40,392 nt of DNA. Source: a virus (taxonomy: Duplodnaviria > Caudoviricetes). Numbering within the stretch: position 1 is the stretch's first letter; every line of letters begins with the position of its first letter. The stretch lies in the IMG/VR virus record IMGVR_UViG_3300020044_007928, positions 1-40,392 of that record. One strand, written 5' to 3'. A model generated the notes under the pieces. That model was given only the letters and a program-made list of their open reading frames with translations. It had not been told where the DNA came from and ran no database searches. Positions 4,125 to 40,392 of this stretch are shown in pieces. A program made the translations under genes and the position numbers.

Positions 4125-5283
4125 CGTCTGCTCCGGCATTGAAGCCGCTACCGTAGCGTGGCATCCACTAGGCTGGCAGGCGGTGGCGTATTCTGAAATC
4201 GAACCGTTTCCGTCGGCAGTCTTGGCGCACCATTACCCGGATACGCCAAACCTCGGCGATATGACGAAATATAAGGAGTGGGATAGTGGAAGAATTGGTG
4301 CAATTGACGTTCTGGCCGGAGGAACCCCCTGCCAATCGTTCTCCATTGCTGGACTGCGAAAAGGACTTGAAGATCCCCGCGGGAACCTCATGCTCACTTA
4401 TTTGGCAATTGCTGAGAGATTTAAACCTCGATGGATCGTTTGGGAAAACGTCCCCGGTGTCTTGTCCAGCAACGGAGGACGGGATTTTGGTGCCTTCCTC
4501 GGGGCGTTGGGGCAACTGGGGTATGAGTGGTCCTACAGAGTCTTGGACGCTCAATGGTTCGGAGTGGCCCAAAGACGCAAGCGTGTGTTTGTTGTCGCGC
4601 ATATTGGAAATGAAGGACGTTCCAAGCAGGTTCTTTTTAAACGAGAGAGCGTGTGCAGGAATACTCCGCCGAGCCGAAAAGCGGAAAAAGAAACTGCCGG
4701 GACAATTACAGTCGGCACTGAAATTCGTTATGATGGAGAATCGCAAACATTTGTCTCAAGAATAAATTATTGCGCCGAGGTCACTGGCACTCTTGCTGCT
4801 GCTGACGGTCCAAAGGGAGTAAGTGACCAGTATTCCCATGAGGGTAAATTGATTGCCATCTCCTGCATGAGTTCAGGCCAAGCAAATGCGGAGATCACGG
4901 AAAACATTTGCCCAACCCTAAGCTGTTTGCATGAGGCACCAATTGTTGTTGATCCATGCAAGTCCTTTTATGTTAGTGATGCTCGCAAGAAGGGCACAGT
5001 TGAACTGCGTGATCAATTTAAAGCCCTGACAAGCCAAGCAAACGGTGGTGACACTGAACCATGTGTGGTGTGTGAACCATCAATGGGTGTTCGCCGATTA
5101 ACACCGCGTGAATGCGAGCGTTTGCAGGGCTTTCCTGACGACTACACCGCAATACCTTGGCGCCGGAAGGCGGCGAATCAATGCCCGGATGGCCCGCGAT
5201 ACAGGGCGCTGGGCAATTCAATGGCGGTGCCGGTTATGCAGTGGATCGGCAAGAGGATAGAAGAGGAGGCAAGAGATGATTGA
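4111..5283 (+). CDS. DNA (cytosine-5) methyltransferase 1
   Basis: Motif I SVCSGIEA, IV GGTPCQSFS, VI WENVPG, VIII QRRKRVF, IX RRLTPRECERLQGFPD, X YRALGNS. Confidence 0.95.
   Translation: MKYLSVCSGIEAATVAWHPLGWQAVAYSEIEPFPSAVLAHHYPDTPNLGDMTKYKEWDSGRIGAIDVLAGGTPCQSFSIAGLRKGLEDPRGNLMLTYLAIAERFKPRWIVWENVPGVLSSNGGRDFGAFLGALGQLGYEWSYRVLDAQWFGVAQRRKRVFVVAHIGNEGRSKQVLFKRESVCRNTPPSRKAEKETAGTITVGTEIRYDGESQTFVSRINYCAEVTGTLAAADGPKGVSDQYSHEGKLIAISCMSSGQANAEITENICPTLSCLHEAPIVVDPCKSFYVSDARKKGTVELRDQFKALTSQANGGDTEPCVVCEPSMGVRRLTPRECERLQGFPDDYTAIPWRRKAANQCPDGPRYRALGNSMAVPVMQWIGKRIEEEARDD
4286..4765 (+). CDS. Overlapping +1-frame ORF inside methyltransferase 1 (M.EcoHK31I beta-like polypeptide)
   Basis: 159-codon open frame with TAAGGAG SD 7 nt before the GTG; C-terminal LSRILE..VPSRFFLNERACAGILRRAEKRKKKLP..L..AL resembles nested MTase beta-type peptides (from recall). 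Confidence 0.55.
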   Translation: MEELVQLTFWPEEPPANRSPLLDCEKDLKIPAGTSCSLIWQLLRDLNLDGSFGKTSPVSCPATEDGILVPSSGRWGNWGMSGPTESWTLNGSEWPKDASVCLLSRILEMKDVPSRFFLNERACAGILRRAEKRKKKLPGQLQSALKFVMMENRKHLSQE

Positions 5284-5590: not shown

Positions 5591-6337
5591 GTGGAACGGA
5601 TCATGGCGCGAGACCTGGCGGTTATGTGCGGAATGCACGTTTCAAACGTGACCCATTTATTGAACCGCGGCATCATATCACCACCCACTGGCATGATTAG
5701 AAACCGCCGGCATCGGTACTGGACGCCGACAGCGGCGGCGGCCAACGTCGTAGCGGTTGAAGCCTACCGGAAGTCAAAGATCCTACCGCCGGCGGCGCCG
5801 GAAGTGCGGGAATTCTACGATAACAACCTACCGCTGGTTTATAAGGCGGCGCGGCGATGGGTGCCGACGGGCATTGACGTTGAGGACTGGCAACAGGAAT
5901 GCGCGCTAAACGTGTTACGGAACCTGCACAGTTTCGACGCAAGCAAGGGCGCGTTTTCGACATGGTGCTATCGGGTGTGCTGGTCAATAGCGGTTGAATA
6001 TGTGCGCATGGAACGCATAAGGAAATCACTGGCGGCGCAATCCCTGCACACCCGCGGCAGTGATGGCGAGTCCTACACCATCGACATTGAGGACCACCGG
6101 CAGCCTGACCCGGCAAGGGCAGCGGCCCACCTGGTGGACGATGTGCGGCAAGGCCTGCGAAGCCTTCCAACGCGCTCACAGGAAGTCGTTATGTCCATAA
6201 TCGACAAGGAACCGGAGCGAGCCATCGGGCGCCGAATCGGTATCACCCGGCAACGGGTGGACCAGATCTGGAAACAGAGCAAGCGGAAACTTGCTAGCGT
6301 GATGTCATCCATGGGGTACGATGGGGGAGAGGAATGA
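5591..6337 (+). CDS. ECF-like sigma-70 family factor with N-terminal AlpA/MerR-like wHTH
   Basis: Region 2: NLPLVYKAARR..DVEDWQQEC..LRNLHSFDASKGAFSTWCYR; region 4: LPTRSQEVV..RAIGRRIGITRQRVDQI..KRKL; GGAGG SD. Confidence 0.85.
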   Translation: MERIMARDLAVMCGMHVSNVTHLLNRGIISPPTGMIRNRRHRYWTPTAAAANVVAVEAYRKSKILPPAAPEVREFYDNNLPLVYKAARRWVPTGIDVEDWQQECALNVLRNLHSFDASKGAFSTWCYRVCWSIAVEYVRMERIRKSLAAQSLHTRGSDGESYTIDIEDHRQPDPARAAAHLVDDVRQGLRSLPTRSQEVVMSIIDKEPERAIGRRIGITRQRVDQIWKQSKRKLASVMSSMGYDGGEE

Positions 6338-6519
6338 GGAAGGATTTTATAGAGAGGCAGCTAACGCCGGAAGTTCTAGGCGCGGCGCTTGAAGCCTTGG
6401 CCCACCAGTGGGCCGAAGCGGTGGCGGAAGTGGAACGGTTGAAGGCGCAGATTCAGCAAGAGCGGGCTACTTGCCGGTGCTGGGAAGCACAGCAGCCACC
6501 GGACCTAATCGACGAATAG
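6334..6519 (+). CDS. Hypothetical coiled-coil protein
   Basis: ATGA overlap with the sigma gene; GGAGAGG SD. Confidence 0.6.
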   Translation: MRKDFIERQLTPEVLGAALEALAHQWAEAVAEVERLKAQIQQERATCRCWEAQQPPDLIDE

Positions 6520-6529
6520 GGGCGGCACC

Positions 6530-6829
6530 ATGATTGACCTTCCCGAGCTGATTGACGCGAGCACCGGCACGGTGACTACCTGCGCAGACATTGCGCGGTT
6601 GGACGCAGTGCTTGAAAGCGGGAAGCGCCTTACCAGCGCCGACGGGAAGCAATTGCTCCAAGACCTTGCCAATCTGCGGTACCGGTTTGCAGTTGATCGG
6701 GTACAGCACCAAGTCATGGAAATTCTAAGCCGATCATGGGAAGGCGCCGACGAAGCGGTGGCGGATCTACTAGCGGCGCGGAAGTTGCTTCGATGGGTTT
6801 GCAGGGAGCATCAGGATATGCGAGAATGA
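6530..6829 (+). CDS. Hypothetical protein
   Basis: Tightly packed ORF with ATGA overlap to rusA. Confidence 0.65.
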   Translation: MIDLPELIDASTGTVTTCADIARLDAVLESGKRLTSADGKQLLQDLANLRYRFAVDRVQHQVMEILSRSWEGADEAVADLLAARKLLRWVCREHQDMRE

Positions 6830-7576: not shown

Positions 7577-8066
7577 AGAGCTTCGACGGGTGCCGGCTTG
7601 TGACCTGATACCCAACCCAAGGAACTGGCGCACCCACGGCAAGGCCCAAGCCGAAGCGCTTCAAGGCCTTCTCGCCGAAGTAGGCTTCGCCGGTGCGGTA
7701 TTGGCCCGGGAAACGCCGGAAGGTTTGATGTTGATTGACGGGCACCTACGTAGTGAAACCGCCGGCGCCGGCATAATACCGGTGCTGGTGCTTGATGTGA
7801 CAGAATCGGAAGCCGACAAGATCTTGGCGACGTACGACCCGATTGGCGCCATGGCGGACAGCGACGCGGCGAAGCTCGACAGTTTGTTGAGGGATGTACA
7901 GACGGGGAACCAGGCCTTGGCGACGATGCTAGCAGAGCTGGCGGAGGCCGCGGGGGTGATACCTGGCACGGAAGAAGGCCAGACGGAAGAAGTAGACGTG
8001 GAAGAATTTGAGTTTGATACGATTTGCCCGAAATGTAAATTTGAGTTTAACAATGAAAGAGCTTAG
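7554..8066 (+). CDS. ParB/Srx-like N-terminal domain protein with C-terminal CPxC zinc knuckle
   Basis: DLIPNPRNWRTH...LIDGHLR pattern; ends ICPKCKFEF; typical neighbour of phage MTase and terminase genes. Confidence 0.8.
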   Translation: MKIRDRIKELRRVPACDLIPNPRNWRTHGKAQAEALQGLLAEVGFAGAVLARETPEGLMLIDGHLRSETAGAGIIPVLVLDVTESEADKILATYDPIGAMADSDAAKLDSLLRDVQTGNQALATMLAELAEAAGVIPGTEEGQTEEVDVEEFEFDTICPKCKFEFNNERA

Positions 8067-9120
8067 CGAAATAAGTTGGAAGCTATCGGACCTTGATTCA
8101 GTGCCTCAAAACGGCATCAAGGTTATGTCCACGTTTGCTTGTGGCGGCGGCTCTTCAATGGGGTATAAGCGGGCAGGCTGCAAGATTGTGGCGGCAAACG
8201 ATATCGACCCGGAAATGGCGTGGCATTACAAAAAGAACCTTAACCCGCCCTTGTATTATCTGTGCCCGATTCGTGACTTGTTAACCGCGGAGCTTCCCGA
8301 AGAACTATTCGCCTTGGATATTCTTGATGGATCGCCACCATGCAGCACGTTTTCAATAGCGGGGAATCGGCAAAAAGATTGGGGCAAAAAAAAGCACTTT
8401 CGGGAAGGGCAAGCTTCTCAGGTGCTGAGCGATTTGTTCTTTGATTACCTTGACCTGGTGGAGCGCTTAAAGCCCCGCGTTGCCATAGCGGAAAACGTTA
8501 AGGGAATGATCATGGGCAGCGCAAAAGGTTACACGAAGCTTGTGATGGAAAGACTAAAGGAAATTGGATACAGGCCGCAATTGTTCCTTGTGAATGCGGC
8601 AGATTGTGGAGTGCCGCAACGCCGGGAGCGAGTGTTTTTTGTTGCTTTGCGAAACGATATTGAGGCGCCATTGTTAAAATTTGCGCCGAAGCACCGATGG
8701 ATTGGCGCTGGCGAAGCGACAGGGGATGTGCAAGAATTGACAGCGGCGGAAAGAAAAGATTGCAACGTAACTGATTCAGCCAAGAAATACTGGGCAAAAA
8801 CTATTCAAGGCGATTCGTTTTCGCGCATTGCGTCATTAGATAAAGGCAAGCCGTCACACTTTAACTGGATTAGGTTGCATGGATTGCAACCGTCCCCAAC
8901 ATTACCGGCTGAACATGCAAAGATTCATCATTGGACAGAATGCAGACCGCTTACCTACCGCGAATGGAAGCGACTCGGTTCCTTTCCTGATGACTACCAC
9001 GCCAAGACTGACAAGATCGGCAAGTACATGATCGGGATGTCCGTACCGCCGAAAATGACAGAACAGGTAGCACGGGCCGTTATTGATCAATGGCTAAGGC
9101 CGGTAAGACAAGATGATTAG
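8053..9120 (+). CDS. DNA (cytosine-5) methyltransferase 2
   Basis: STFACGGG, DGSPPCSTFS, AENVKG, PQRRERVFF, LGSFPDDY, IGMSVPP. Confidence 0.92.
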   Translation: MKELSEISWKLSDLDSVPQNGIKVMSTFACGGGSSMGYKRAGCKIVAANDIDPEMAWHYKKNLNPPLYYLCPIRDLLTAELPEELFALDILDGSPPCSTFSIAGNRQKDWGKKKHFREGQASQVLSDLFFDYLDLVERLKPRVAIAENVKGMIMGSAKGYTKLVMERLKEIGYRPQLFLVNAADCGVPQRRERVFFVALRNDIEAPLLKFAPKHRWIGAGEATGDVQELTAAERKDCNVTDSAKKYWAKTIQGDSFSRIASLDKGKPSHFNWIRLHGLQPSPTLPAEHAKIHHWTECRPLTYREWKRLGSFPDDYHAKTDKIGKYMIGMSVPPKMTEQVARAVIDQWLRPVRQDD

Positions 9121-12944: not shown

Positions 12945-15900
12945 GTGGGCAGCGTATTCAACAGCAGGATGGCGGCACGGGTGGGCGTCAATCAGGCGCG
13001 CACCCTGGCGCATGCCGACGCGGTGGCCGACGGCATTGACGCCAAGGTAGTGCGACTATGGAAGCGCGCCTTGCGCCTGATCGCATTGAAGCCCCTTCCG
13101 GTGGATGCGCGCACCCAGCTGGGGGCGATCCTGCGCGAGATTCAAACGCTCACCGTTAAGGGACTGGATGCAGGCCTCCGGCAGATTGCCAAACGGGCCC
13201 ACACCGCGGCGCGGGAGGAAGTCTTGGCCGAAGCCCCGCGGGCAGTCATCGCCACCGCCTTGACCTTGGCAGCGCCGGAAAGGCCTGACCTCACCGAAGC
13301 CCGGCGCCTAAATCCAGAACAACGGGCCCAAGTGGAAGCACAATTATTCCCCGCCCTTGACCATGACGAAACCACCGCAATCATCACGCGCCCAACCAAC
13401 GGCCTGACCTGGCAGGCCCGCATCGCGGCCCAAACCGCCCTGGCGCCACCGGAGCAATTGGCCAACATCGTCATCCAAGGAATCAGCCAAGGGCAGACAA
13501 TCCAAGCCATGGCGCGGACTATGCTTCCCGCGGTGCAGGGTGTCAGAACATCGGCGCGACGGGTGGCACGAACCGAGGGGATGCGGGTGGCGCACGAAGC
13601 CCGGATGGATTGCTACAGCGGCCTTGGGGACCTCGTGGCAGGCTACCAGATTCACGCAACCATGGACTGGCGCGTCAGGCCCCACCACGCGGCAAGGAAC
13701 GGCACGGTTTACTATGTGCGACCCAAGCCGGGGCAACAATCCACGACGCATATGCCGCGGCCCCCGCTCGAGGAAGATGGAACCGTGGCCCACAATTGCC
13801 GGTGCTATCTTACGCCTGTTTTAGACGTTGACCCAGACATCGAAAACAACCCCGCGGCGCGGGCCTTGTTCACCGATAACGACCACAAATTGGTCCAAGA
13901 CCCCAACGTCTATTCGGATTGGTTTGCCAACGCCAGTGACCAAGAGCGGCGGTGGGCAGTCGGGGCGCGGCGCTTGTCGGCAATCACGGCAGGCCTTCCA
14001 GCCGGGCAGGCGCCGACGTGGGCGCATTTCATCGACCCCACCACCGGGCAGCTTCTGCAATTGGAGCGCCTGACAGCCGAGACGCCGGCACGGCGTGAAG
14101 CCCGAATGAACCGGGTGGCGGAAGTCCTGGCGGAGCGGGAGCGACTAGCCCGGCAGGTACAACGGTTTGGCTACCTCACCGCGGAGGACGGAGGCGAACC
14201 GTTACCGGTGCAAGACCTCACCCCGCCGGCGCCCCACCCGTACACGGCACCGGAAAGCCCAACGCCGGAAGCGCCGGAGCCCTTGCCACTACCGGCGCCG
14301 GTGGAACAGGACAGGATTGACGCCGAGCAAGAGAAGTTCAGCCGCGAGGCAGGCAAAGGCGGCGCCTTCCAAGGGGAGGCAGTTAAGGCCGACCCGACGG
14401 AGTACATCCCCTTCCGATGGGAGGCGACTAGGTTCCCGTTCAAGCTTGAAGGACCCACCGGCGTGGCAGTATCGCATGAGGTTTACAAGCCTGTTTTGCG
14501 ACCCGGCGGGAAGCTTGAGAAGGACTCGGATTCAATGCTGAAAAGAGAATGGCAAGAGCTTATGGAGAAGGACAAGCTCACCATGGCGGACCTTCAGTAC
14601 GCCGAAGAAAAAACAACGCTCACGGCATCTCCAGACGGCACCCGGGTTCTATTGGCAACACCGGAACAGGCAGCCAAGGCCATGGGGTTAAAGCCTGCAA
14701 AGGTGCGCGAGTATGACCAGATCGCCGCGGCAACGTGGCGCATTCAATTTGGCAAAGAGATCTTGGCATCATGGCAAGAGAAGGCAGACCAAGCCGAAGA
14801 AATTTGGCGCCAGACTCGAGAGATGGAAGGCCCACCGCCAACACGGTACCCCGAAGGAGACCAAGGCAATAACCGAGCGTGGATTGTTGACGGCATTATC
14901 TTCCGAGTGTACGACGAATCCGAACAGCCGAAATTGACCCGCGGTGTGAAGACGGCAGCGCTCAGCCTATGGCGCGATAAGCAAGCCGAAACACTGCGAT
15001 GGGCGGTAAACATACCGATTGACCACCGGGCCTGGAAAAAAGAAATCAAAGCCGTAGCGGATCAGGTGGAGAGCCTAGAAAAGAAGCTCCGTGGGAAGGT
15101 GGACCGATTCGGGGCGGCGCTTGACGTGATGACGCCGACAGGCCCACAAGTGACGGCGCCGGCGCCACCGCCACCACAGGTAAACGTGGTACGGGGCGAA
15201 GCCGAGCCAATGCCAGACGGTGTCGACGATATAGCGATGGACAGGTACGGCGAGGTTGTCAACCTGGCGCAACGGGCATTTGGCAAGGGCACTAAAAGCT
15301 TGCCATTGTTCAACGCGCTAGGAGAGCTTAGCGGCGAACAAATGGCCAAGGTGGCGCTACACGTAGGCATCGACCCGGCAACGCTTCCCGAGGTTTTGGT
15401 AGGCACTGGCAAGCGCCGAGACTATTTATACGCGCAGATCATTAAGCGGCAGCCTGAAGATAAGCTTATCGACGTTGAAGCTATTTCAGCCGGCGTTGAC
15501 CCGCAAGCGCTTCGATCCGTAGCGGAGCAAGGCTGGGCGTTTGAACAGTCGAAATATAAAGCGGAATTGGAAGCCGTTAAGGAAGTAAAGGCCCAGTACA
15601 AACAATACACTCGGATGGCCAGCGCCGAAGGCAAGCCAAAGCCGTGGCCACCGCGGAACAGTCCGGCATGGAATGACAGCGTGACCTTTCCGCATTGGGA
15701 CAAGATCCTACCGAGCCTGCAACGGGAATTTGAATGGTCCACCCTATTATTCGGCAACCCGGAAGCAGACCTGGCGGCGGCAGGCGAGAACGTAGAATCG
15801 AGCGACCCGTCGCAAGTCTTATGGTCTATCCTGATGCGCCACCAAGCCGGTGGCATCGAGAAGCCCGACAAGGTGGCATTCTATCGAGATCAAATCTATT

Positions 15901-18536
15901 TAGTGCGAGACGATCCAAGCTTTGCCTACGATCCCGAGCGCCCCGTTGTTCCTGTTTCAACGGAGCCGTTCAATTGGGACGATGACACGCCAGCGCCGGC
16001 AGAACCGCCGATGCAACCGGCGGAAGAGCCGGAGCGAGTGTGGGACGATGAGGAAGGCGAATGGGTGACGGCGCCCACCGCGGTGGCAACACCGGACCCC
16101 GACCCGTGGGACGATGACCCATTCGCCCGCGGCGCAGTGGCGCCACCCCTGGCGGCGAAGCAGCCAGAACCCGAAGAGGATGAACGCCGATGGGAAGATG
16201 AAGAAGGCGAAGCTAATTGGGAACCAGCCGGGGCAACCCGCGGTGGCGACCCATGGGACTTCCCGACGGAAACCGCGGCGGCAGAGCCCGCGGAAGATGA
16301 ACGCCGATGGGATGAAGAAGAGGAAGAAGGCGACGCCTACGGATACAATCCGTCGCCACAGGAAACCGTTGAACCGGAGCCAGCGCCGGAGCCCGAACCG
16401 GTACCGGAACCGAAGCCAAAGAAGCTTCCGAAGTACATTCCCGCGGGCCGGTTGAAATCCGACGCGCAAGTGGTATTCCCGGCACCGATAACGGGCAACA
16501 CCGGCGCCGAACTGGTTTCGTATGAGTGGGCCTATCAAGTAGAAGATGTGCAGACAGCCGATGACGTGGTAGCAAAGAAGGTGAGCAATTGGGACCGCGC
16601 AGACGTGAGCGACGAAACCGGCAGACTGATTGTTCACAAATTCGAGGTTCGAGGCGCCGATGGAACGCTTAGGCTGGTAAGCCTAGAAACCGCGGCGCGC
16701 CTGCTCGGGTACACTCCCGGACAAGCTCAAGACATTGCGAACATTGCCACTACCGCTAAGACATATGCGAAGATGCAAATGGCAATCAGTGTGCTTGATG
16801 CGGCAATCAAAGAAACGGCAGAGATTAAGGCGGAAGTGGATGCGATGGAGCCACCGCCGGTTATTGAAGTGAGCAGAACAAGCCCAACTACTAGGAAGTG
16901 GATGATAGGCGACGTTGAGATGGGGGAACGGTTTGGCATAATGGCCGGCGACCACCCGTATGAAATCGGCGAACCAATACCGGCGGAACTGGTCAAGCGC
17001 GGGCAAGACTTTTGGCGAGATGCGCAGCTTGCGCGCAGAAAAAAAGAATCAGGGTATGAAAGCTACGAGGCGTTTGGTTTTCGGCGAAGTGAATTAGAGA
17101 AACGAGCGAAAAAACTAAAGCTAAAACTGGACATAGCAATCCGGAAGGCCGGAGAAAAAAAACGACTAGAAGAGGCAGTCAGATTGGAGCGCCGAGCACT
17201 CCGGGCAGGAATCACGCTGGGCGAAGCTTTTGGACCCATACGGCACCGATGTTTATACTTGAACCCCATGAGAAGACCAATTCACGAATCCGTCTTGAGT
17301 GGCCGCGGCATCCGAGTCAATCGGGAAGCCGGCACCATTGCCAACGTGAAGATCTTGGGCCTTGTCAGCGAGAATGGGCGCCAGTACCTTCCCGCGGCAA
17401 TTCAAGCGGCGAAGAAGCTTTACGAAGGCGTTCACGTAAACATTGACCACCCGAAGGATTCGCCGGACCAACAACGCAGCGCCTACGACAGATTCGGCAA
17501 GCTCACCCGCATTCGGTGGGTGGAGGGCGAAGGCCTTTACGGGGACCTGGTGTACCTCAAAACCCACCCCATGGCGGAACGGATCTGCGAAGCGGCGGAG
17601 CGCATGCCAGACGCCTTTGGGATGTCTCACAACGCCCAAGGCGAAGGCGAAGAAAATAAGGACGGGGTATTCGTCGTAAGTAAAATCGTGGAGGTGCGGC
17701 ACGTGGACCTCGTAGCAGATCCGGCAACAACCAAGAGCCTAAGCGAGAGTAAGAAAATGAAAAAAGCAACAGCGCCAATTGAAGAAGCTAGCAGCGAAGA
17801 CATGAAATTGGTTCAAGAATGGCAGAAGCTATACCATACTTCAATTGACAACGCCAAGAGCGCGAAAACAAAGCAAGGCAAGATAGATTGGGAATACTTT
17901 GCAATCCTTATTGCAGGCATTATGAAAGACGCCGGTACAAAAGCAAGTAGAGGGGAGCCGGTACCCGATCCCAAAAATTACAAAAATGGAATGTTTTCAA
18001 AAATCAAACCGACTTCTACGGATTTGCCCGAAGCCACAGGAGCAACAAAAATGGACACAGTCGAAATCGTTTCGCAATTGAAAGACCTTCTCGACCAGCT
18101 GGCCATGAGCCTTGGCGGCGAGGAAATGCCTTCCGAAGAAGCCTACGACGGCGAGGAAACGAAGCCGGCGATGGAAGCCGAGGACGAAGAAAAGAAATCC
18201 ATGGATGACGAAGCCACCGAAGGCTACGACACCCCGGAAATGGACGAAGAGCCAGAAGAAAAAAAGAAGCCTTCCATGGAAGGGCGCCAAACCAAAGCCA
18301 TTCGCAACGCTCGCAAGCTCTGCGAAGCGGTAGGCTTGAAGCCTTCCCGCGAACTGCTCCAAGACCTGGCTAGCATGCCAAGGGAAACCGCGGCGCGCCA
18401 AGTACAGCGCCTTGCATTGGCGCAAAAATCCAAAGCCCCCCGAAGCGGCAGCTATATGACGGAAGGGCGCACCGGCGCCACCGACAATAACGGCATTCCA
18501 ACCGGGCCGGCTCTATTCACTTGGCTAGCCAACTAA
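12945..18536 (+). CDS. Giant MuF(gp7-like)-cargo-prohead protease-scaffold ORF; probable internal starts at 17268 and 18051
   Basis: MuF motifs ARRVARTE, DWRVRPHHAARNG, HNCRC; protease motifs NIDHP, GMSHNA, VDLVADPAT; acidic scaffold-like C-terminus; no stop over 1863 codons. Confidence 0.8.
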   Translation: MGSVFNSRMAARVGVNQARTLAHADAVADGIDAKVVRLWKRALRLIALKPLPVDARTQLGAILREIQTLTVKGLDAGLRQIAKRAHTAAREEVLAEAPRAVIATALTLAAPERPDLTEARRLNPEQRAQVEAQLFPALDHDETTAIITRPTNGLTWQARIAAQTALAPPEQLANIVIQGISQGQTIQAMARTMLPAVQGVRTSARRVARTEGMRVAHEARMDCYSGLGDLVAGYQIHATMDWRVRPHHAARNGTVYYVRPKPGQQSTTHMPRPPLEEDGTVAHNCRCYLTPVLDVDPDIENNPAARALFTDNDHKLVQDPNVYSDWFANASDQERRWAVGARRLSAITAGLPAGQAPTWAHFIDPTTGQLLQLERLTAETPARREARMNRVAEVLAERERLARQVQRFGYLTAEDGGEPLPVQDLTPPAPHPYTAPESPTPEAPEPLPLPAPVEQDRIDAEQEKFSREAGKGGAFQGEAVKADPTEYIPFRWEATRFPFKLEGPTGVAVSHEVYKPVLRPGGKLEKDSDSMLKREWQELMEKDKLTMADLQYAEEKTTLTASPDGTRVLLATPEQAAKAMGLKPAKVREYDQIAAATWRIQFGKEILASWQEKADQAEEIWRQTREMEGPPPTRYPEGDQGNNRAWIVDGIIFRVYDESEQPKLTRGVKTAALSLWRDKQAETLRWAVNIPIDHRAWKKEIKAVADQVESLEKKLRGKVDRFGAALDVMTPTGPQVTAPAPPPPQVNVVRGEAEPMPDGVDDIAMDRYGEVVNLAQRAFGKGTKSLPLFNALGELSGEQMAKVALHVGIDPATLPEVLVGTGKRRDYLYAQIIKRQPEDKLIDVEAISAGVDPQALRSVAEQGWAFEQSKYKAELEAVKEVKAQYKQYTRMASAEGKPKPWPPRNSPAWNDSVTFPHWDKILPSLQREFEWSTLLFGNPEADLAAAGENVESSDPSQVLWSILMRHQAGGIEKPDKVAFYRDQIYLVRDDPSFAYDPERPVVPVSTEPFNWDDDTPAPAEPPMQPAEEPERVWDDEEGEWVTAPTAVATPDPDPWDDDPFARGAVAPPLAAKQPEPEEDERRWEDEEGEANWEPAGATRGGDPWDFPTETAAAEPAEDERRWDEEEEEGDAYGYNPSPQETVEPEPAPEPEPVPEPKPKKLPKYIPAGRLKSDAQVVFPAPITGNTGAELVSYEWAYQVEDVQTADDVVAKKVSNWDRADVSDETGRLIVHKFEVRGADGTLRLVSLETAARLLGYTPGQAQDIANIATTAKTYAKMQMAISVLDAAIKETAEIKAEVDAMEPPPVIEVSRTSPTTRKWMIGDVEMGERFGIMAGDHPYEIGEPIPAELVKRGQDFWRDAQLARRKKESGYESYEAFGFRRSELEKRAKKLKLKLDIAIRKAGEKKRLEEAVRLERRALRAGITLGEAFGPIRHRCLYLNPMRRPIHESVLSGRGIRVNREAGTIANVKILGLVSENGRQYLPAAIQAAKKLYEGVHVNIDHPKDSPDQQRSAYDRFGKLTRIRWVEGEGLYGDLVYLKTHPMAERICEAAERMPDAFGMSHNAQGEGEENKDGVFVVSKIVEVRHVDLVADPATTKSLSESKKMKKATAPIEEASSEDMKLVQEWQKLYHTSIDNAKSAKTKQGKIDWEYFAILIAGIMKDAGTKASRGEPVPDPKNYKNGMFSKIKPTSTDLPEATGATKMDTVEIVSQLKDLLDQLAMSLGGEEMPSEEAYDGEETKPAMEAEDEEKKSMDDEATEGYDTPEMDEEPEEKKKPSMEGRQTKAIRNARKLCEAVGLKPSRELLQDLASMPRETAARQVQRLALAQKSKAPRSGSYMTEGRTGATDNNGIPTGPALFTWLAN
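15950..16420 (+). repeat. Acidic W-D/E-rich coding repeats (EDERRW[DE]DEEGE) in the MuF extension
   Basis: FNWDDD, ERVWDDEEGE, DPWDDDPF, EDERRWEDEEGE, EDERRWDEEEEEG; DNA repeat GATGAACGCCGATGGGA present twice. Confidence 0.75.
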
Positions 18537-22048: not shown

Positions 22049-24058
22049 ATGGCGCTTACCCATCATTACCTATTTGATACCGCTACAGGGTTTGCTGATT
22101 CTATCGGATCAGCAAACCTTACTGCTGTTTTAGGTAGCATCGGATCTTCTGGAAAAATCAATCAATGTTGTGATTGGACCTTTAGCGGCGGATCAGCGGC
22201 GGCGACAGCAACTGGAGTATTGCCTTCAAGCGGCAGTGCGTTTTCGGTGGCGTTTTGGTTGAAAACTACCACTTCTTCTATGGTAGATGGAAAATTTATT
22301 TACAATAATTCAACCGGCTTCAATATCGCCTTTCTTGCAACCGGAGGAGCTGTTGATCGTTTTCTTGTTCAGTTTTCATCAGCGTCAATGTTTTATGAAA
22401 TTCAAGACGTAATCTCTGTAACTTATAGCAATTTTAACCATTTTGTAGTTACTTATGACGGAACCGGAACATGGAAAACATATTGCAACGGTAGCTTAAC
22501 AGGCACCACAGCAACAATGGGGGCGCCACAAACAAGCGGCGCCTTTATGGTGGGTCCGGGCTGGAATACGACATCGTCAATGGATGATTTGCGAATCTAT
22601 GATAATGCTATTGATGCAACAGAAGTGGCATTTGTTTACAATAGCGGAACAGGAACTCAAGCGGCAAGCCCTGGCGCGGCAACCGGCGCCGGCGTAACGG
22701 TTACCATGACAGCCCCAGCCGGGGCGGCAGTCGTCCCAACCAATGGATCGGCGACGGGTGCAGGCGCCACAGTCGCGATGACGGCGCCGGCGGGAACGGC
22801 AAGCGCTGCAACCAACGGATCGGCAACCGGCACGGGGCGCACCGTCACCATGGTGGCACCAGCCGGATTGGCCCGCACGTCTTGGATTACCGAGCCCATA
22901 CCAGCCGTTACCATGGTGCCACCCGAAGGCCGGGTGCGGATCGGCGCCGAAACCATCGGGCCCACCATCCTGGTGACAATACCGCCGGCAGGCCTCGGCG
23001 CCGGCGGCGGATCGGCTAGCGGCACGGGGCGAACCGTCACGCTATCGGCGCCGGCAGGATCGGCAACGGGCATCGCGGCAAGCTCCGGCACCCTCGGCAC
23101 GGTGGCCATGACGGCGTCGGCAGGAACTGCGGCAGGATCGGCGGCGGCCAGTGGAGCGCCTGGCACCGTACCGGTAACGGCGCCCACCGGCGGCGCAACC
23201 GGAACGGCAGCTATAGCGGCAGCCTTGGCAACCGTTACGGTGACGACTACCGCCGGAAGCGCAATTGGCACCGCGGCGGCAAGCGGAGCGCTTGCAACCA
23301 TAGCGGTAAGCACTACCGCCGGAAGTGCAAGCGGAACAGCAGCAGCCACCGGCGCGGGGCGAACCGTAGCGGTATCGGCACCCGCCGGCACCCTGACAGC
23401 CTCGGCGACAACAGCCGGAGCCTTGGCAACCGTCACGATGACGGCGCCGACAGCGACAAGAACCGGCAGCGCAACGGCAAGCCCGGCAGGCGTGACGGTA
23501 ACGGTAGCGGCGCCGGCAGGTGGATCAATCGGCACGGCAAACGGCACCGGAGCAATAAGCACGGCAACCATGACGGCACCTGGCGGAGCGGCCCGAGTAT
23601 CGGTATCGGCAGCCGGAAGCCTTCCAACGGTGGCCATGACGACGGCGGCGGGAGCTGCAACCGGCACGGCATCCACAACCGGCGGCGGCGCAACGGTGGC
23701 CATGGCGGCACCGGCAGGCGTGGCCCGGGCCTCAGTGATTGCAGCCGGCGCACCTGGCACGGTGACCATGACGGCAACCGCCGGCAGCGCCACCGGCACC
23801 CTTACGGCGCCCCTTGCCACCATCGCCATGGTGGCACCTACCGGCGCAGCCTTGGCCATTGTGCGCGGTATCGGCGCCCTTGGAACGGTGACCATAACGG
23901 CACCCGGCGCCGGCACCATAACGGCCAACGCCACCGGGAACCCTTCCGGGGTAACGGTGTCGGTTATCGCTCCGGCGGCGCGGGTGGCACCGATCACAAC
24001 TGGCGGCGGTACTAGCGTCTCAACATATGACCTGCGAAGGGCGGGTACTAATCTATGA
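22049..24058 (+). CDS. LamG/ConA-like lectin domain + Ala/Thr/Gly-rich repeat stalk (adhesin/fibre)
   Basis: FSVAFWLK..FNHFVVTYDG..YCNG..MDDLRIYDNAI LamG motifs; ~21-aa repeats of type GxAxGAxxTVxMTAPAG. Confidence 0.8.
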   Translation: MALTHHYLFDTATGFADSIGSANLTAVLGSIGSSGKINQCCDWTFSGGSAAATATGVLPSSGSAFSVAFWLKTTTSSMVDGKFIYNNSTGFNIAFLATGGAVDRFLVQFSSASMFYEIQDVISVTYSNFNHFVVTYDGTGTWKTYCNGSLTGTTATMGAPQTSGAFMVGPGWNTTSSMDDLRIYDNAIDATEVAFVYNSGTGTQAASPGAATGAGVTVTMTAPAGAAVVPTNGSATGAGATVAMTAPAGTASAATNGSATGTGRTVTMVAPAGLARTSWITEPIPAVTMVPPEGRVRIGAETIGPTILVTIPPAGLGAGGGSASGTGRTVTLSAPAGSATGIAASSGTLGTVAMTASAGTAAGSAAASGAPGTVPVTAPTGGATGTAAIAAALATVTVTTTAGSAIGTAAASGALATIAVSTTAGSASGTAAATGAGRTVAVSAPAGTLTASATTAGALATVTMTAPTATRTGSATASPAGVTVTVAAPAGGSIGTANGTGAISTATMTAPGGAARVSVSAAGSLPTVAMTTAAGAATGTASTTGGGATVAMAAPAGVARASVIAAGAPGTVTMTATAGSATGTLTAPLATIAMVAPTGAALAIVRGIGALGTVTITAPGAGTITANATGNPSGVTVSVIAPAARVAPITTGGGTSVSTYDLRRAGTNL

Positions 24059-35934: not shown

Positions 35935-36999
35935 ATGCCACAAGAAATAATAGTAGGGCACGCAATAACCCCTTTTGTTTCGGCATACCCATGGTCAGCT
36001 AGCGGGTTTGGCGCCAAGTTTGCCAACCCTTCGGTGCTTCCGAGCGGTGCGTGCTATTCTGTTAGCCCAACGCTTGGCGCCGTTGTTTTGGGTTCAATTT
36101 CGACACCTTCGCTTGCAGCCTACGCGTTTTCTAGCGGTGGTTGGGGTTCTAAGTATTCAAACCCAGCCGTTGCACCTGATGGTTCGTATGGAGTGGCGTA
36201 TCATCCAAGCGGAAATTATATTGCCTCCACAGGATCGGCAAGTCCGCGAATCCATGCCTATTTATGGTCGATTTCCGGGTTCGGCACTAAGTTTGCCAAC
36301 CCATCAACGGTGCCAACCGGGCAAGCCTACGCAATTGATTTTGCCGAATCTCAAGTAATAGTTGCTCACGCAACAACCCCTTTCGTTTCAGCCTATCCAT
36401 GGTCGGCTTCTGGGTTTGGAACCAAGTTTGCCAACCCGGGTTCTTTGCCTCCGGCGGACTGTTACAGCGTTTCGTTTTCTTCCTCCTATTCCGAAGTTGT
36501 TTTAGGGCACAGCACTAGCCCTCACGTTTCGGGCTATCCGTGGTCATCTTCCGGGTTTGGCACTAAGTTTGGCAACGCTAGCCCTTTGCCCGGCAGCGCC
36601 AATTCAGTGCGAATCAAAAATAATATATTGGCCGTCACTATTAGCGGGACACCGTATTTGCGCGCATACGGATGGTCTTCTTCTGGTTATGGTTCTCAAT
36701 ACTCCTCCCCTTCTTCTCTTGCGACTGGGTCGGGCAACAACGCAGCTATTTCAAATTCCATCGCATTGGCTCACAGCACAACGCCTTTTATTAGCGCGTG
36801 GGATATTGGTTACGTTACCAAATTTGCAAACCCATCGACATTGCCAACAGGTAACGGGCAGAGCGTCGCATTTACCCCAGAAACAACACCGGGAAACGCA
36901 ACCGGCGCCGGAGTAGGTATTGCAATTGCTAGAGCAGAAGGCAATGCTATCGGCACCATTGTTGCCGGTGGCGGCATGTTGTTACTCGGCGTGGGGTAG
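35935..36999 (+). CDS. Seven-repeat beta-propeller protein (adhesin candidate)
   Basis: Seven ~43-aa repeats of consensus VxHxTTPFVSAYPWSxSGFGTKFANPxxLP. Confidence 0.8.
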   Translation: MPQEIIVGHAITPFVSAYPWSASGFGAKFANPSVLPSGACYSVSPTLGAVVLGSISTPSLAAYAFSSGGWGSKYSNPAVAPDGSYGVAYHPSGNYIASTGSASPRIHAYLWSISGFGTKFANPSTVPTGQAYAIDFAESQVIVAHATTPFVSAYPWSASGFGTKFANPGSLPPADCYSVSFSSSYSEVVLGHSTSPHVSGYPWSSSGFGTKFGNASPLPGSANSVRIKNNILAVTISGTPYLRAYGWSSSGYGSQYSSPSSLATGSGNNAAISNSIALAHSTTPFISAWDIGYVTKFANPSTLPTGNGQSVAFTPETTPGNATGAGVGIAIARAEGNAIGTIVAGGGMLLLGVG

Positions 37000-37254: not shown

Positions 37255-37424
37255 TTGCTATCGTCTGGTTTGCCCTAGCGGCGCCACCATGTCCGACATG
37301 ACCCGGGGCGCCTTCACCGGTTCGGCGGTACGTCGCACCGATAAGGAAGCCTATCGCAAGGCCAACACCAAGGCCCGGGCCCACCAAGCCGGCGCCGATC
37401 ACTTGGCAGGTGCGGCATGATTGA
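37251..37424 (+). CDS. Candidate UGA-readthrough (CxxU) small exported protein; alternatively two tiny ORFs
   Basis: MIAIVWFALAAPPCPT-UGA(37299)-PGAPSP...QVRHD; spans the gap with overlaps at both ends. Confidence 0.3.
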
Positions 37425-37731
37425 CGGCCTGCTTACTTCCACCATGCGAATGATCTTCGGGGCGCCTCGGGCCTCGGGGTGGAGTGCTCTTCGCAACCGG
37501 ACCCTTAAGGGCGCCGATTGTTTGGCATGCGGCACGGATCGGGACCTTGAAGCCCATCACCTGGTACCGGTGCACATTGCGCCGGAATTAGAATTAGAGC
37601 CCACCAACCTGGTACCGCTTTGCAGGGATTGCCACTTCATCTTCGGGCACTTGAAGTCGTGGACCAGCTACAACGAACACGTGATTCAGGACGCCGGCAA
37701 CTACCGGCGGCGCCTCGAATGCAGGCCTTGA
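37417..37731 (+). CDS. HNH endonuclease
   Basis: CLACG..LEAHHLVP...NLVPLCRDCH..FGH. Confidence 0.88.
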   Translation: MIDGLLTSTMRMIFGAPRASGWSALRNRTLKGADCLACGTDRDLEAHHLVPVHIAPELELEPTNLVPLCRDCHFIFGHLKSWTSYNEHVIQDAGNYRRRLECRP

Positions 37732-37734
37732 ACG

Positions 37735-37755
37735 TTGTTTGGCCCACCCAAACAA
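37735..37755. promoter_or_regulatory. Inverted-repeat site TTGTTTGG-N5-CCAAACAA (copy 1)
   Basis: Perfect 8-bp arms; same motif at 38499-38519, degenerate copies at 37821 and 38567. Confidence 0.55.
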
Positions 37756-37863
37756 CAAACCCTACCCCGTGGAAATCGTAAACTAACATACGCAAACCAT
37801 TACAACGCAAGGCCTTATGGTTGTTTGGCATATGCAAACAGCCTAAACTAACAAGGGGCGCCG

Positions 37864-38376
37864 ATGATTAAGGGAACCATGGTTACCTTGGCGGCGCCGG
37901 AGCAGGAATTGGCCCGAGCCATGGCAGCACGGCGCGCCGAATGGAGGGCGCGTCAACAGGTCCCCGGGTGGGCTATCGGCGACGGAAGCCGGGCTGGGGC
38001 GTGGCAGGATCAAGACCTCTTGGCGAGCTGCTCGGAGCTGGCGTTCTGCAAGCTTGCAAACATATACCCGGAAGGAATCAAGGAAGGCGCCGGCACCGCG
38101 GTGGAAATAGATTGCAGGCTTCCCAACGGTGACGGCGTGGACATCAAGGCCACCCGCTACCCTACCGGGAGCCTTCGGGTTTCGATGCGGAAATACAGGC
38201 CCGCGGTAGAACGTACCTGGTATGTGCTGCTGACAGGAACCGGGCCCGAATCCGAATGGGTGTTCCGCGGCGCCATGCGGCCCGCGGACCTAATCACGCC
38301 GGAGCGCCTGACCTCATTCGGCGGTGTCGATCACCAATACATTGCCGACCAATCTATCCTAATTGACCTACCATAA
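37864..38376 (+). CDS. Hypothetical protein, possible PD-(D/E)xK fold
   Basis: ELAFCK...IDCRL....VDIKAT pattern; AAGGGG SD. Confidence 0.6.
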   Translation: MIKGTMVTLAAPEQELARAMAARRAEWRARQQVPGWAIGDGSRAGAWQDQDLLASCSELAFCKLANIYPEGIKEGAGTAVEIDCRLPNGDGVDIKATRYPTGSLRVSMRKYRPAVERTWYVLLTGTGPESEWVFRGAMRPADLITPERLTSFGGVDHQYIADQSILIDLP

Positions 38377-38381
38377 GTCAC

Positions 38382-38425
38382 TTGTTTGAACAGCCCCTAT
38401 GGTGTATATAGGGGCTTCCAAACAA
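38382..38425. terminator. Long hairpin between convergent genes (probable bidirectional terminator)
   Basis: TTGTTTG..AGCCCCTAT-ggtgtat-ATAGGGGCT..CAAACAA. Confidence 0.55.
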
Positions 38426-38454
38426 CCAAACAAGAAACCATAAGCCCAAGCCGA

Positions 38455-38865
38455 TTAAGGCTTTGACCCGTCATCTTTACCCAAACAAACACCGGGCCTT
38501 GTTTGGCTATCCCAAACAAGCCACCAAGACTTGATGACGGCGCAAACGGCACCGGTGAGCGTGGTATTGTTTGCCTTAGCCAAACCTTGGAGCGCCTGTT
38601 TCAACTCCGGCGGCACCCATACGGTGAGCTGGGTTCCGCGGCGCCGGCGGTGGGTAGTGTTCTGCGGGAGCCTGGGTTCCTTCCGCGCGCGGGCAATCCC
38701 CTCGGCGGTGGCAAGGCACCAGACATGCTTCCGGGCACTCATGCGAATGGGTGGCACGATAGCACCGCGGCGAACCAGGCCCCAAACCGATTGGGTGGTT
38801 ATGCCCAGCATCGCGGCAAGCTCCTTGGCGCTGACGACTTCAACCAAGCCTTCTAAAGCATTCAT
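38455..38865 (-). CDS. Regulator: AlpA/excisionase-like wHTH + ribbon-helix-helix domain
   Basis: VSAKELAAMLGITTQSVWGLVRRGAI HTH; TQLTVWVPPELKQALQGLA..NTTL RHH; GGAG SD; only clearly real minus-strand gene. Confidence 0.7.
   Translation of the reverse strand: MNALEGLVEVVSAKELAAMLGITTQSVWGLVRRGAIVPPIRMSARKHVWCLATAEGIARARKEPRLPQNTTHRRRRGTQLTVWVPPELKQALQGLAKANNTTLTGAVCAVIKSWWLVWDSQTRPGVCLGKDDGSKP
38499..38519. promoter_or_regulatory. Inverted-repeat site TTGTTTGG-N5-CCAAACAA (copy 2)
   Basis: Identical arms and spacing to 37735-37755. Confidence 0.55.
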
Positions 38866-38893
38866 CGAAAAATTCTCCGGTAGTGAAAAATTT

Positions 38894-38921
38894 ATTGTAC
38901 CACAGCTTGACAGTGTCGCAA
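38894..38921 (-). promoter_or_regulatory. Leftward sigma70-type promoter for the regulator gene
   Basis: Minus strand TTGCGA-N16-TACAAT with extended TG; overlaps rightward promoter 1. Confidence 0.55.
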
Positions 38922-38934
38922 CACCGACTAGAAT
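38907..38934 (+). promoter_or_regulatory. Early promoter 1 (TTGACA-N16-TAGAAT) with palindromic spacer GTGTCGCAACAC
   Basis: Near-consensus hexamers, repeated three times. Confidence 0.85.
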
Positions 38935-38941
38935 TTAAGCA

Positions 38942-38962
38942 TGGGACCGAAGGACGGGACCA
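38942..38962 (+). promoter_or_regulatory. Leader hairpin 1 with AAGGA loop (CsrA-type site)
   Basis: TGG-GA-CCG AAGGA CGG-GA-CCA. Confidence 0.6.
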
Positions 38963-38987
38963 AGACAACGCAAGCGGAGAACGGAAA

Positions 38988-39227
38988 ATGAACAAGCAGC
39001 ACTGGATCGCAATTGGAACGGTAGTGGTTCTTCACAACATGGGGCAGAAAACGTTTGGAATGATTTGTGATCGCGAACAAGAAAAATACGGATTGGCTTA
39101 TACGGTTTTAACTGACGAGCACAGATTTGAAAAACATTTCAACATTGCCGATGCAAACATGAAAGGAATTGGCTGGAAAATTGCAAACGATGAAGAGATT
39201 GCTTTTCGCGCCAAGTACCGTAACTAA
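38988..39227 (+). CDS. Early cassette gene 1, hypothetical (79 aa)
   Basis: GGAGA SD; ATG 81 nt after the -35 start. Confidence 0.75.
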   Translation: MNKQHWIAIGTVVVLHNMGQKTFGMICDREQEKYGLAYTVLTDEHRFEKHFNIADANMKGIGWKIANDEEIAFRAKYRN

Positions 39228-39266
39228 GAAAAACTTCCGGGCCCGGAAAAATTCTTCCGGGCCCTC

Positions 39267-39294
39267 TTGACAGTGTCGCAACATGGATTAGAAT
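39267..39294 (+). promoter_or_regulatory. Early promoter 2 (TTGACA-N16-TAGAAT)
   Basis: Spacer GTGTCGCAACAT; preceded by hairpin GGGCCCGGAA-N6-TTCCGGGCCC (39239-39264). Confidence 0.85.
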
Positions 39295-39302
39295 ACAGGC
39301 AT

Positions 39303-39321
39303 GACAGCGAAGGACGCAGTC
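39303..39321 (+). promoter_or_regulatory. Leader hairpin 2 with AAGGA loop (CsrA-type site)
   Basis: GAC-A-GCG AAGGA CGC-A-GTC; compensatory changes relative to copies 1 and 3. Confidence 0.6.
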
Positions 39322-39347
39322 GGAACGCCAACACGGAGAACGGGACC

Positions 39348-39677
39348 ATGAGCCAGACTTACTTTTCTTTCGTCAACACCAACTACAACGGCAACGTCGA
39401 TCACCGTTCCGATGATCAGCAGTTTATCAAGTTCACGGGCTTTATTGATCAGAGCACCGAAGTCGATGAAATGCCCCAAGCCAACAGCCAACGGTACGTT
39501 GCAATCACCGAAGCCCAAGACATGGGCGATGATGATGAAAGCCTGTTCTGGTCGGTGGGCATTATGATTGATGGGGAATGGGCCGGCAAGGTTTACGACT
39601 GCCGGAGCGAGGCTTCAGCCCAACGCCTGGCGGAGAAAATCGCCAAGAACCAAGGCCTGACAATTGAGACCTACTAA
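39348..39677 (+). CDS. Early cassette gene 2, acidic hypothetical protein (109 aa)
   Basis: GGAGA SD; ATG 81 nt after the -35 start. Confidence 0.75.
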   Translation: MSQTYFSFVNTNYNGNVDHRSDDQQFIKFTGFIDQSTEVDEMPQANSQRYVAITEAQDMGDDDESLFWSVGIMIDGEWAGKVYDCRSEASAQRLAEKIAKNQGLTIETY

Positions 39678-39717
39678 AAAAACTTTTCGGGGTTCCGGAA
39701 AAATCTTCCGGAACCTC

Positions 39718-39745
39718 TTGACAGGGTTGCGACGCTGATTAGAAT
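39718..39745 (+). promoter_or_regulatory. Early promoter 3 (TTGACA-N16-TAGAAT)
   Basis: Spacer carries the reverse-orientation core GTTGCGAC; preceded by hairpin GGTTCCGGAA-N5-TTCCGGAACC (39691-39715). Confidence 0.85.
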
Positions 39746-39752
39746 ACAGGCA

Positions 39753-39773
39753 TGGAACCGAAGGACGGTTTCA
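39753..39773 (+). promoter_or_regulatory. Leader hairpin 3 with AAGGA loop (CsrA-type site)
   Basis: TGGAACCG AAGGA CGGTTTCA. Confidence 0.6.
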
Positions 39774-39799
39774 AGAAAACGCAAGCGGGAGACGGACTC

Positions 39800-39994
39800 A
39801 TGGCAAACATCACATGCGGCAAGTGCAACGGTTCGGGCCAGTTTCATCTTAAGGTAGTTCAGAATGGCCGAGTGGGAGTTAAGGTAGATATTTGCTACGC
39901 TTGCCGCGGCAAGGGCACCATGACTGAGAGCGACATTAAGCGCAACGATATTTACTGGAAGTACAATTTTGTTCGAATTGCAAACGGCGGTTGA
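39800..39994 (+). CDS. Early cassette gene 3, DnaJ-type zinc-finger protein (64 aa)
   Basis: CGKCNGSG and CYACRGKG CxxCxGxG repeats; GGGAGA SD. Confidence 0.75.
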   Translation: MANITCGKCNGSGQFHLKVVQNGRVGVKVDICYACRGKGTMTESDIKRNDIYWKYNFVRIANGG

Positions 39995-39995
39995 A

Positions 39996-40046
39996 ACCCA
40001 CTGATGAGCCCCGGGGCGCCGGGGCGAAACCCTTCGGGGTCTGGGT
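39996..40046 (+). ncRNA. Type I hammerhead ribozyme; predicted cleavage after GUC at 40041
   Basis: Stem I ACCCA/UGGGU; core CUGAUGA; stem II GCCCCGG-GGCG-CCGGGGC; GAAA; stem III ACCC-UUCG-GGGU; C17. Confidence 0.92.
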
Positions 40047-40069
40047 CGCAAACCTTACGGAGATTGAGA

Positions 40070-40258
40070 ATGAATCGCTTCACCTTTCAGCTTGGCTACA
40101 GCGTATTGGCAAACGGCTACAACGGCACGCGCCGGGTGGACGCCGAAAACATCGAACAGGCCATTCAGATCTTCTATCAAACGTGGGAGCGCGACGGCAG
40201 CCTACGCGAAGAATTGGGCGACGTTTGGGATTTACACCAGTGCATGACTAGGGAATGA
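40070..40258 (+). CDS. Hypothetical early protein downstream of the ribozyme (62 aa)
   Basis: GGAG SD at 40059-40062; MNRFTFQLGY... Confidence 0.65.
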   Translation: MNRFTFQLGYSVLANGYNGTRRVDAENIEQAIQIFYQTWERDGSLREELGDVWDLHQCMTRE

Positions 40259-40271
40259 TTGGCAGGCCTTC

Positions 40272-40392
40272 CCGCCACCCCCACCCGGTAGATACCACGT
40301 GGGGAAACCGGGCAGGCCTGGCGCGGGGTGCGTGGCCCCGGGGAGCTTCTTTGTTGCAGGCCTGCCCACTTATTTCAGGAGATGGAAAGCCA
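40272..40392. repeat. Terminal direct repeat, right copy
   Basis: Identical to 1-121. Confidence 0.95.

Follow-up and report, generated by a model that had tools for sequence, protein, structure and literature searches.

The locus described here raises the question of what is served by three copies of one promoter and leader, each heading a different small gene, in a phage that also encodes a homolog of the regulator CsrA. The window (the whole stretch of 40,392 nucleotides that was analyzed, IMGVR_UViG_3300020044_007928) is circular, as the first-pass annotation assumed, and comprises a complete phage genome of about 40.27 kb with 58% GC and a 121-nt end repeat. The genome is siphovirus-like and encodes terminase, a lambda-type portal, capsid, tail, tape measure, and primase-helicase proteins. 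Matches to the capsid protein are present in 13 of 301 Planctomycetota genomes, compared with one of 301 control-phylum genomes, the lone control match being to a phage contig, 99% identical, that had been binned into a MAG; judged from these matches, the host likely belongs to the Planctomycetota. 'Sphingorhabdus' is ruled out as the host, since the match concerned lies on a phage contig of 35 kb within a MAG. A prophage of the planctomycete G055 has only head genes in common with the phage, and the 33 kb of it that were examined contain no cassette. Elsewhere, the genome carries genes for a sigma-70-family factor (5591–6337) and two C5 DNA methyltransferases (4003–5283 and 8008–9120), for a 1863-aa fusion protein of the head morphogenesis (Mu F-like) type that contains an acidic repeat region (12945–18536), and for two repeat-rich proteins without a Pfam family (22049–24058 and 35935–36999), with 66-nt-based and about 140-nt repeats.

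The close family used for comparison consists of ten loci (the window, L001, L012–L017, L231, and L315), from which 27 modules were parsed, with module B of L315 left unparsed and L001 ending after module A. The family counts given below come from close kin, so that those of loops and base pairs stand for few independent events. In a search of IMG/VR with the recombination protein, 49 of 55 loci belong to unrelated phages with neither cassette nor csrA, and distant relatives sought through CsrA were not found.

The three modules have the architecture first annotated for them, with TTGACA at positions 38907, 39267, and 39718, followed in each case by N16-TAGAAT-N4-GCATG, GAAGGAC, and GGAGA, and with ATG codons at 38988, 39348, and 39800, that is, 81, 81, and 82 nt after the −35 element. 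Promoters A (38907–38934), B (39267–39294), and C (39718–39745) all lie on the plus strand. A −10 element of the module type follows only three of the ten plus-strand TTGACA sites, and the pattern TTGACA-N16-18-TANRAT is found three times in the genome, compared with 0.03 times per simulated genome (200 Markov simulations). Pairwise identity of the modules is 63–70% (80, 84, and 88 of 126 columns), which marks them as duplicates rather than independent occurrences. The A of GCATG is positioned 6 nt after the −10 element; from this spacing, transcription is predicted to start at 38941 (A), 39301 (B), and 39752 (C), and the promoters appear to be of the host sigma-70 type. Gene A (38988–39227, plus strand, 79 aa), preceded by the Shine–Dalgarno (SD) sequence GGAGA at 38976–38980, and gene B (39348–39677, plus strand, 109 aa) belong to no family. 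Gene C (39800–39994, plus strand, 64 aa) encodes a CxxC zinc-finger-like protein with a match to DnaJ_CXXCXGXG below the cut-off, and falls into phrog_6060.

The position of GCATG also permits a reading in which its ATG is a leaderless start codon of a 16-codon upstream peptide, with a stop codon that overlaps the main ATG and couples the two translationally. In copies A and B, the frame opened at +1 does end in a TGA that overlaps the ATG; in copy C it is in-frame. It differs among relatives, copy C of L231 has ATA at +1, and related lineages begin with GTC or ATC. Such a peptide is essentially refuted by the shifting frames and by the ATA variant, and we assign it hardly any likelihood.

The gene content of the relatives directly backs a side idea of the first-pass annotation, namely that the module acts as a recombination anchor for swapping early genes. 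Slot A is occupied by three different genes in ten loci, slot C by five in nine, and slot D, which lies behind a ribozyme motif described below, by two in nine, while slot B holds a single gene family throughout the relatives examined. One gene family occupies slot C, behind the promoter, in L016, and in L012 its member (60% identity) follows the hammerhead. The leaders are mosaic, combining halves of the A, B, and C types, as in L001 and L315, where leader A has a B-type 3′ half. The region is thus an array of duplicated promoter-leader cassettes; related phages exchange the genes of these cassettes, and recombination inside the repeats is the likely route.

A comparable arrangement is known from the PeSL cassettes of the T4-like phages RB49/phi1, PST, and nt-1 (PMC2839356, PMC4122927), described there as repeats of about 100 bp that comprise an upstream stop codon, an AT-rich tract, a stem-loop, a sigma-70 promoter, an SD sequence, and an ATG. 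Common to both systems are a repeated sigma-70 consensus promoter with an AT-rich upstream tract, a stable stem-loop in the intergenic element, chimeric repeats, and small genes of unknown function that differ between close relatives. The stem-loop upstream of the −35 element corresponds to inverted repeats at 39239–39264 for B (10 bp, −22.1 kcal/mol) and 39689–39717 for C (12 bp, −20.9 kcal/mol) and is weak in A (−3.2 kcal/mol). In PeSL cassettes, the stem-loop terminates upstream transcription, and mini-circles form. In the phage, the PeSL-type repeat of B is terminator-like only on the minus strand, and the only plus-strand terminator-like match in 37300–40392 falls within gene B. The descriptions concern T4-like myoviruses, whereas the genome studied here is siphovirus-like, measures 40 kb, and contains just three copies; its array works in the manner of PeSL but falls outside the described group. 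Three features go beyond PeSL: the promoter spacers contain a palindrome that is accompanied by a divergent helix-turn-helix (HTH) gene, the hairpin at the 5′ end is transcribed and its loop conserved, and a fourth cassette is headed by a hammerhead.

The leader hairpins, all on the plus strand, are located at 38942–38962 in A (loop AAGGA, 38950–38954), 39303–39321 in B (loop AAGGA, 39310–39314), and 39753–39773 in C (8 bp, loop AAGGA, 39761–39765), and their stems CCG/CGG, GCG/CGC, and AACCG/CGGTT fold as originally drawn. Hairpins A and C are more stable than shuffled sequences (z = −2.9 and −2.2), and B alone is not (z = 0.24). The proposal that these are RNA structures is borne out by compensatory changes in the leaders of relatives. 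Invariance of GAAGGAC, claimed for the modules, holds within this genome but in only 20 of the 27 family leaders; the constant part is ANGGA, conserved in 27/27 as AAGGA (21), AGGGA (5), or ACGGA (1). Among 17 distinct family hairpins, the first pair below this loop is G-C (12), A-U (4), or G.U (1), the second is C-G in all 17, and the third is C-G (13) or G-C (4). Leaders A, B, and C contain 5, 4, and 4 GGA triplets per 47 nt, compared with a mean of 1.03 (range 0–3) for 33 other genes, placed at about −36, −12, and −5 relative to the start codon. A GGA at −11 to −13 is present in 23 of 23 parsed leaders, a count that is uninformative alone because the SD supplies GGA. An Rfam search of the leader gave no family at the gathering score and none relevant by E-value. 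When a promoter plus GARGGAC was used as the query pattern, a hairpin of at least 3 bp was found at 18 of 122 loci; only the close family had two or more such loci, and the other matches are therefore mostly chance. Of the 48 records in that scan, only the five from the close family carry csrA.

The csrA homolog (557–763, plus strand, 68 aa) lies directly before the genes for recombination, SSB, and primase proteins and, as first annotated, downstream of the modules on the same strand of the circle; its identification is upheld by Pfam PF02599 (34.1 bits against a cut-off of 27), and its family is phrog_9500. The gene is found in nine of the ten family loci, the tenth being a fragment that ends before the csrA position. 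The structure is modeled with good confidence (pLDDT 88.5), the best 13 among the Foldseek matches listed are CsrA, RsmA, or RsmE, and the TM score to 2bti is 0.79 (E = 5e-3, for a short protein). In the numbering obtained by alignment to solved CsrAs, to which the protein is about 30% identical, and thus divergent, the equivalents of L4, R6, R44, E46, and I47 are retained. The equivalent of R44, a residue needed for RNA binding by CsrA (PMC7366521), is R55, invariant in 25 of 25 aligned sequences. According to PMC7366521, csrA homologs are present in 30 of 2517 phage genomes, with no target described; the phage shares with them a csrA gene on a phage genome and differs in the divergence of the protein and in having candidate targets adjoining. 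In the literature searched, which included only a minority of subscription papers, regulation of phage leaders by a phage CsrA is not described. The SD regions of the csrA, DUF669 (SSB-like), and primase genes (540–556, 1474–1489, and 2017–2036) can each form a weak ANGGA pentaloop on 3–4 bp; these are possible further or autoregulatory CsrA sites, though here too the SD supplies the GGA.

Such a protein, together with such leaders, suggests the self-contained Csr regulon proposed in the first-pass annotation, in which a CsrA dimer, once accumulated, would bridge the GGA of the loop (−36) and that of the SD (−12) and block translation of the early genes. We consider this a real possibility, though on balance a doubtful one; it can coexist with the other functions proposed below for the cassettes and a DNA-binding repressor. 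In its favor are the density of GGA in the leaders, the constancy of ANGGA, which with its variable N matches the consensus of the CsrA family, the CsrA fold with its key RNA-binding arginine, and the presence of csrA in the family loci. The leaders resemble the CsrA/RsmE operators described for the hcnA SD and RsmZ SL1–4 (PMC4005645) and for BS1/BS2 of Bacillus subtilis hag (cited in PMC8523840) in presenting an ANGGA loop above a C-G pair, followed some 24 nt further on by another GGA at the SD, and the phage encodes a protein with the CsrA fold. Written as C-[R ANGGA Y]-G, the hairpins place their invariant C-G where RsmE contacts the closing pair and contain one extra 5′ purine, as does RsmZ SL1 (PMC4005645), half of which they resemble and which still binds RsmE, about tenfold more weakly (PMC4005645). 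The loop-to-SD spacing of 24–25 nt is close to the 20–24 nt of planctomycete flagellin leaders. The operators described in those reports differ, however, in their geometry, since X of A(N)GGAX is canonically looped out (PMC4005645), whereas in the phage it is paired and covaries, so that a covarying R-Y pair closes an ANGGA pentaloop where the operators have an ANGGAX hexaloop, and the C-G lies one pair lower. They also differ in that here the regulator and its putative targets would be on one phage. The equivalents of T5 and H43 are altered in the phage protein (N13 and D54), and a CsrA fold does not predict activity (PMC13443453).

Host leaders provide a further comparison. From 30 planctomycete flagellin loci, 21 leaders were parsed, six of which, two of them near-identical, carry an ANGGAX hairpin between −31 and −34 and a GGA at the SD, an arrangement similar to that of the phage leaders. 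These host-type leaders use the hexaloop (6/21) and never the pentaloop (0/21), which counts against the self-contained Csr regulon. The same leaders bear on another reading, in which the phage leaders would be read by the CsrA of the host, either sensing its state or titrating the protein, while phage CsrA would act elsewhere, for example on host mRNAs or through inactive heterodimers. The likely planctomycete host, the frequency of CsrA in that phylum (PMC13443453; five copies in G055), and the ANGGAX hairpins of some flagellin leaders agree with such a role. The phage loop does not share the geometry of the host-type hexaloop, three leaders would make a small sponge, and related lineages, probably with similar hosts, have no GGA loops; we therefore think it improbable that host CsrA is the intended reader.

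Those related lineages, two in number (L233–L236; L404, L407, L418, L431, L441, and L456), share with the family the peptidase gene, the A-tract promoter, the 5′ hairpin, and the hammerhead. Their promoters were compared with their CsrA content by hand scoring of nine loci. GGA occurs in the loop in none of 15 promoter rows (13 if two rows that no gene follows are left out), the loops being ACAGT/GCAGT or AACGAC/AACTGA/AACAAC, and a homolog of gene A (58%) stands behind a GGA-less hairpin in L407. In seven contigs of these lineages (L407, at 6495–6812, L404, L418, L431, L441, L456, and L234), the place of csrA, immediately ahead of the recombination gene, is taken by a two-domain CsrA-like gene, and the GGA loop is missing, which weighs against CsrA as the reason for that loop. 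The second half of the two-domain protein is 51% identical to phage CsrA; Pfam does not detect these proteins, which were identified by a custom profile and BLAST. In L233, a Pfam-positive CsrA is encoded at a different location. Motif and regulator occur together in the close family, a CsrA-like gene occurs without the motif in the related lineages, and the motif occurs without a detected csrA in partial records.

The partial records include the unrelated, actinophage-like G001 (L331–L333), with an AAA ATPase 63% identical to that of DSL-LC01, where hairpins of the G-ARGGA-C type are found in seven of 49 promoter rows beside GGA-less AAGGG, AACAA, and AAGTT loops; the relative L344 adds AGGGG. 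Their presence there also counts against a Csr function, csrA being detected neither in G001 (31% complete) nor in any of 20 relatives, only one of which is at least 90% complete, so that its absence from that family is tentative. As a complete csrA-free control, DSL-LC01 was rejected, since it is without csrA but also without cassettes. G001 and L344 have about 40 repeated early promoters with several classes of covarying 5′ hairpin loops. In other viral contigs (L019, L022, L024, L030, L040, L042, L043, L046, L049, L044, and L045), a promoter is followed by a GGA-repeat RNA that has no Rfam match and looks like a Csr/Rsm-type sponge; the tandem GGA-rich RNAs of L044/L045 and L040/L049 match no Rfam family.

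We can speculate that in each lineage the CsrA-like protein and the leader code have evolved together, yielding private Csr circuits orthogonal to that of the host. The single-domain CsrA, with its T5-to-N and H43-to-D changes, would read R-ANGGA-Y pentaloops, unlike host hexaloops, and the two-domain protein would read C-AACGAC-G loops and the leaders of its lineage, which are ACGA-rich (four ACGA in the first leader). Since AAC-type loops are also present in G001, the private-code reading is weakened and seems to us rather unlikely. If true, it would mean that CsrA serves as a translational timer encoded by a phage, the first of its kind, and that the specificity of CsrA has changed naturally.

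The description of the module given in the first-pass annotation is accurate in its parts but omits three elements of the same region: the spacer palindrome, the divergent HTH gene, and the downstream hammerhead. The palindrome GTYGCRAC, a candidate operator, is located at 38915–38922 in spacer A, 39275–39282 in spacer B, and 39726–39733 in spacer C (GTTGCGAC). These three copies are the only ones in the genome, a number no higher than chance (mean 3.56), so that their position alone is special; the motif is found at one offset in 27 of 27 family spacers, in which only the Y and R positions vary. The palindrome of spacer A overlaps the −35 element of a predicted reverse promoter (38894–38921, minus strand, TTGCGA-N16-TACAAT), which itself overlaps promoter A and would drive the divergent HTH gene (38455–38865, minus strand, 136 aa). 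The product has an N-terminal HTH (HTH_17/AlpA-like; Pfam HTH_17 E = 0.00048, below the cut-off; Atlas AlpA/HTH_17 cluster 0.90) and a C-terminal β-α-α region, ribbon-helix-helix (RHH)-like, modeled with low confidence (pLDDT 51; strand 79–82, helices 86–98 and 103–121). For this low-confidence model, Foldseek found nothing significant, and the RHH-like domain has no Pfam match. Copies of the gene, 74–96% identical, adjoin cassette A in seven IMG/VR relatives, and the related lineages are without both the palindrome (0/15 promoter rows) and the HTH gene. The HTH protein and GTYGCRAC are likely a repressor/operator pair for the three promoters.

A type I hammerhead ribozyme motif follows gene C (39997–40045, plus strand), with a complete core and cleavage predicted after C40041, and behind it lies gene D (40070–40258, plus strand, 62 aa). 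All 13 of 13 loci have the complete core (CUGANGA / GAAA / NUH + GUC), and compensatory changes affect each of stems I–III, although the score lies below the Rfam gathering threshold (20.3 bits against 52 for RF02275; the L233 copy, 23.3 against 34 for RF00163). The hammerhead pattern is present in 127 stretches of the scanned part of IMG/VR. Hammerheads with a complete core flank short variable prophage genes and have been proposed to process long transcripts (PMC3088659). The phage motif is similarly placed between short, non-constant phage genes; in contrast to those described, it is a single copy, below Rfam thresholds, with predicted cleavage. The leader remaining after cleavage would contain four GGA in L014, L015, L016, L231, L012, L013, and L315 and one in the window and L017. 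Another phage (L433/L413; G691, G679) has seven hammerheads heading small genes, as well as a canonical CsrA (89.6 bits). Between gene D and the operon holding csrA lies a conserved two-part structured RNA (40266–40370, plus strand), which shows compensatory changes in relatives and matches no Rfam family at the gathering score; it could attenuate or time csrA and the replication genes.

Together, the candidate operator/repressor pair and the hammerhead give a simpler account of early shut-off and of leader design than CsrA does, and a combination of cassettes and repressor is the explanation that we favor, if by a modest measure of confidence. Transcription by the host sigma-70 RNA polymerase would begin with the A of GCATG, placing the hairpin 1–2 nt from the 5′ end of the mRNA. 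Structure at the 5′ end blocks RppH and RNase E and protects mRNA (PMC3997798); with its hairpin so close to the end, each cassette would block entry of RppH and RNase and supply its gene with a nuclease-protected message.

An mRNA with a 5′-OH end is likewise protected. Hammerhead self-cleavage would leave such an end and thereby give gene D an equivalent start. The HTH/RHH-like protein, expressed from the reverse promoter over promoter A, would bind GTYGCRAC in the three spacers and in its own promoter and shut the cassettes off at the DNA level. What is conserved across lineages is the cassette itself, in which a promoter, a 5′-terminal hairpin, and an SD stand ahead of a variable gene, and for which the hammerhead is the alternative, promoter-free head. 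The loop varies among related phages, ANGGA would be the form peculiar to this lineage, and binding of CsrA to the GGA-rich leaders may add a further layer without defining the function of the cassettes. This explanation does not account for the full conservation of ANGGA, for the invariant second C-G pair, or for the 4–5 GGA per leader, and both the ordinary stability of hairpin B relative to shuffles and the sub-threshold Rfam scores of the hammerhead count against it.

Phage csrA genes are known, with no target shown in the literature searched, and this locus now offers candidate targets. It provides a compact test of CsrA, with one CsrA, three near-consensus leaders, and natural loop variants, for which the sister lineages, with other loops and another form of CsrA, serve as controls. 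Even if CsrA is uninvolved, the candidate operator/repressor pair offers a means of early shut-off, the promoter cassette and the hammerhead appear as interchangeable heads for one gene family, and gene shuffling of the PeSL type is extended to small phages, likely of planctomycetes.
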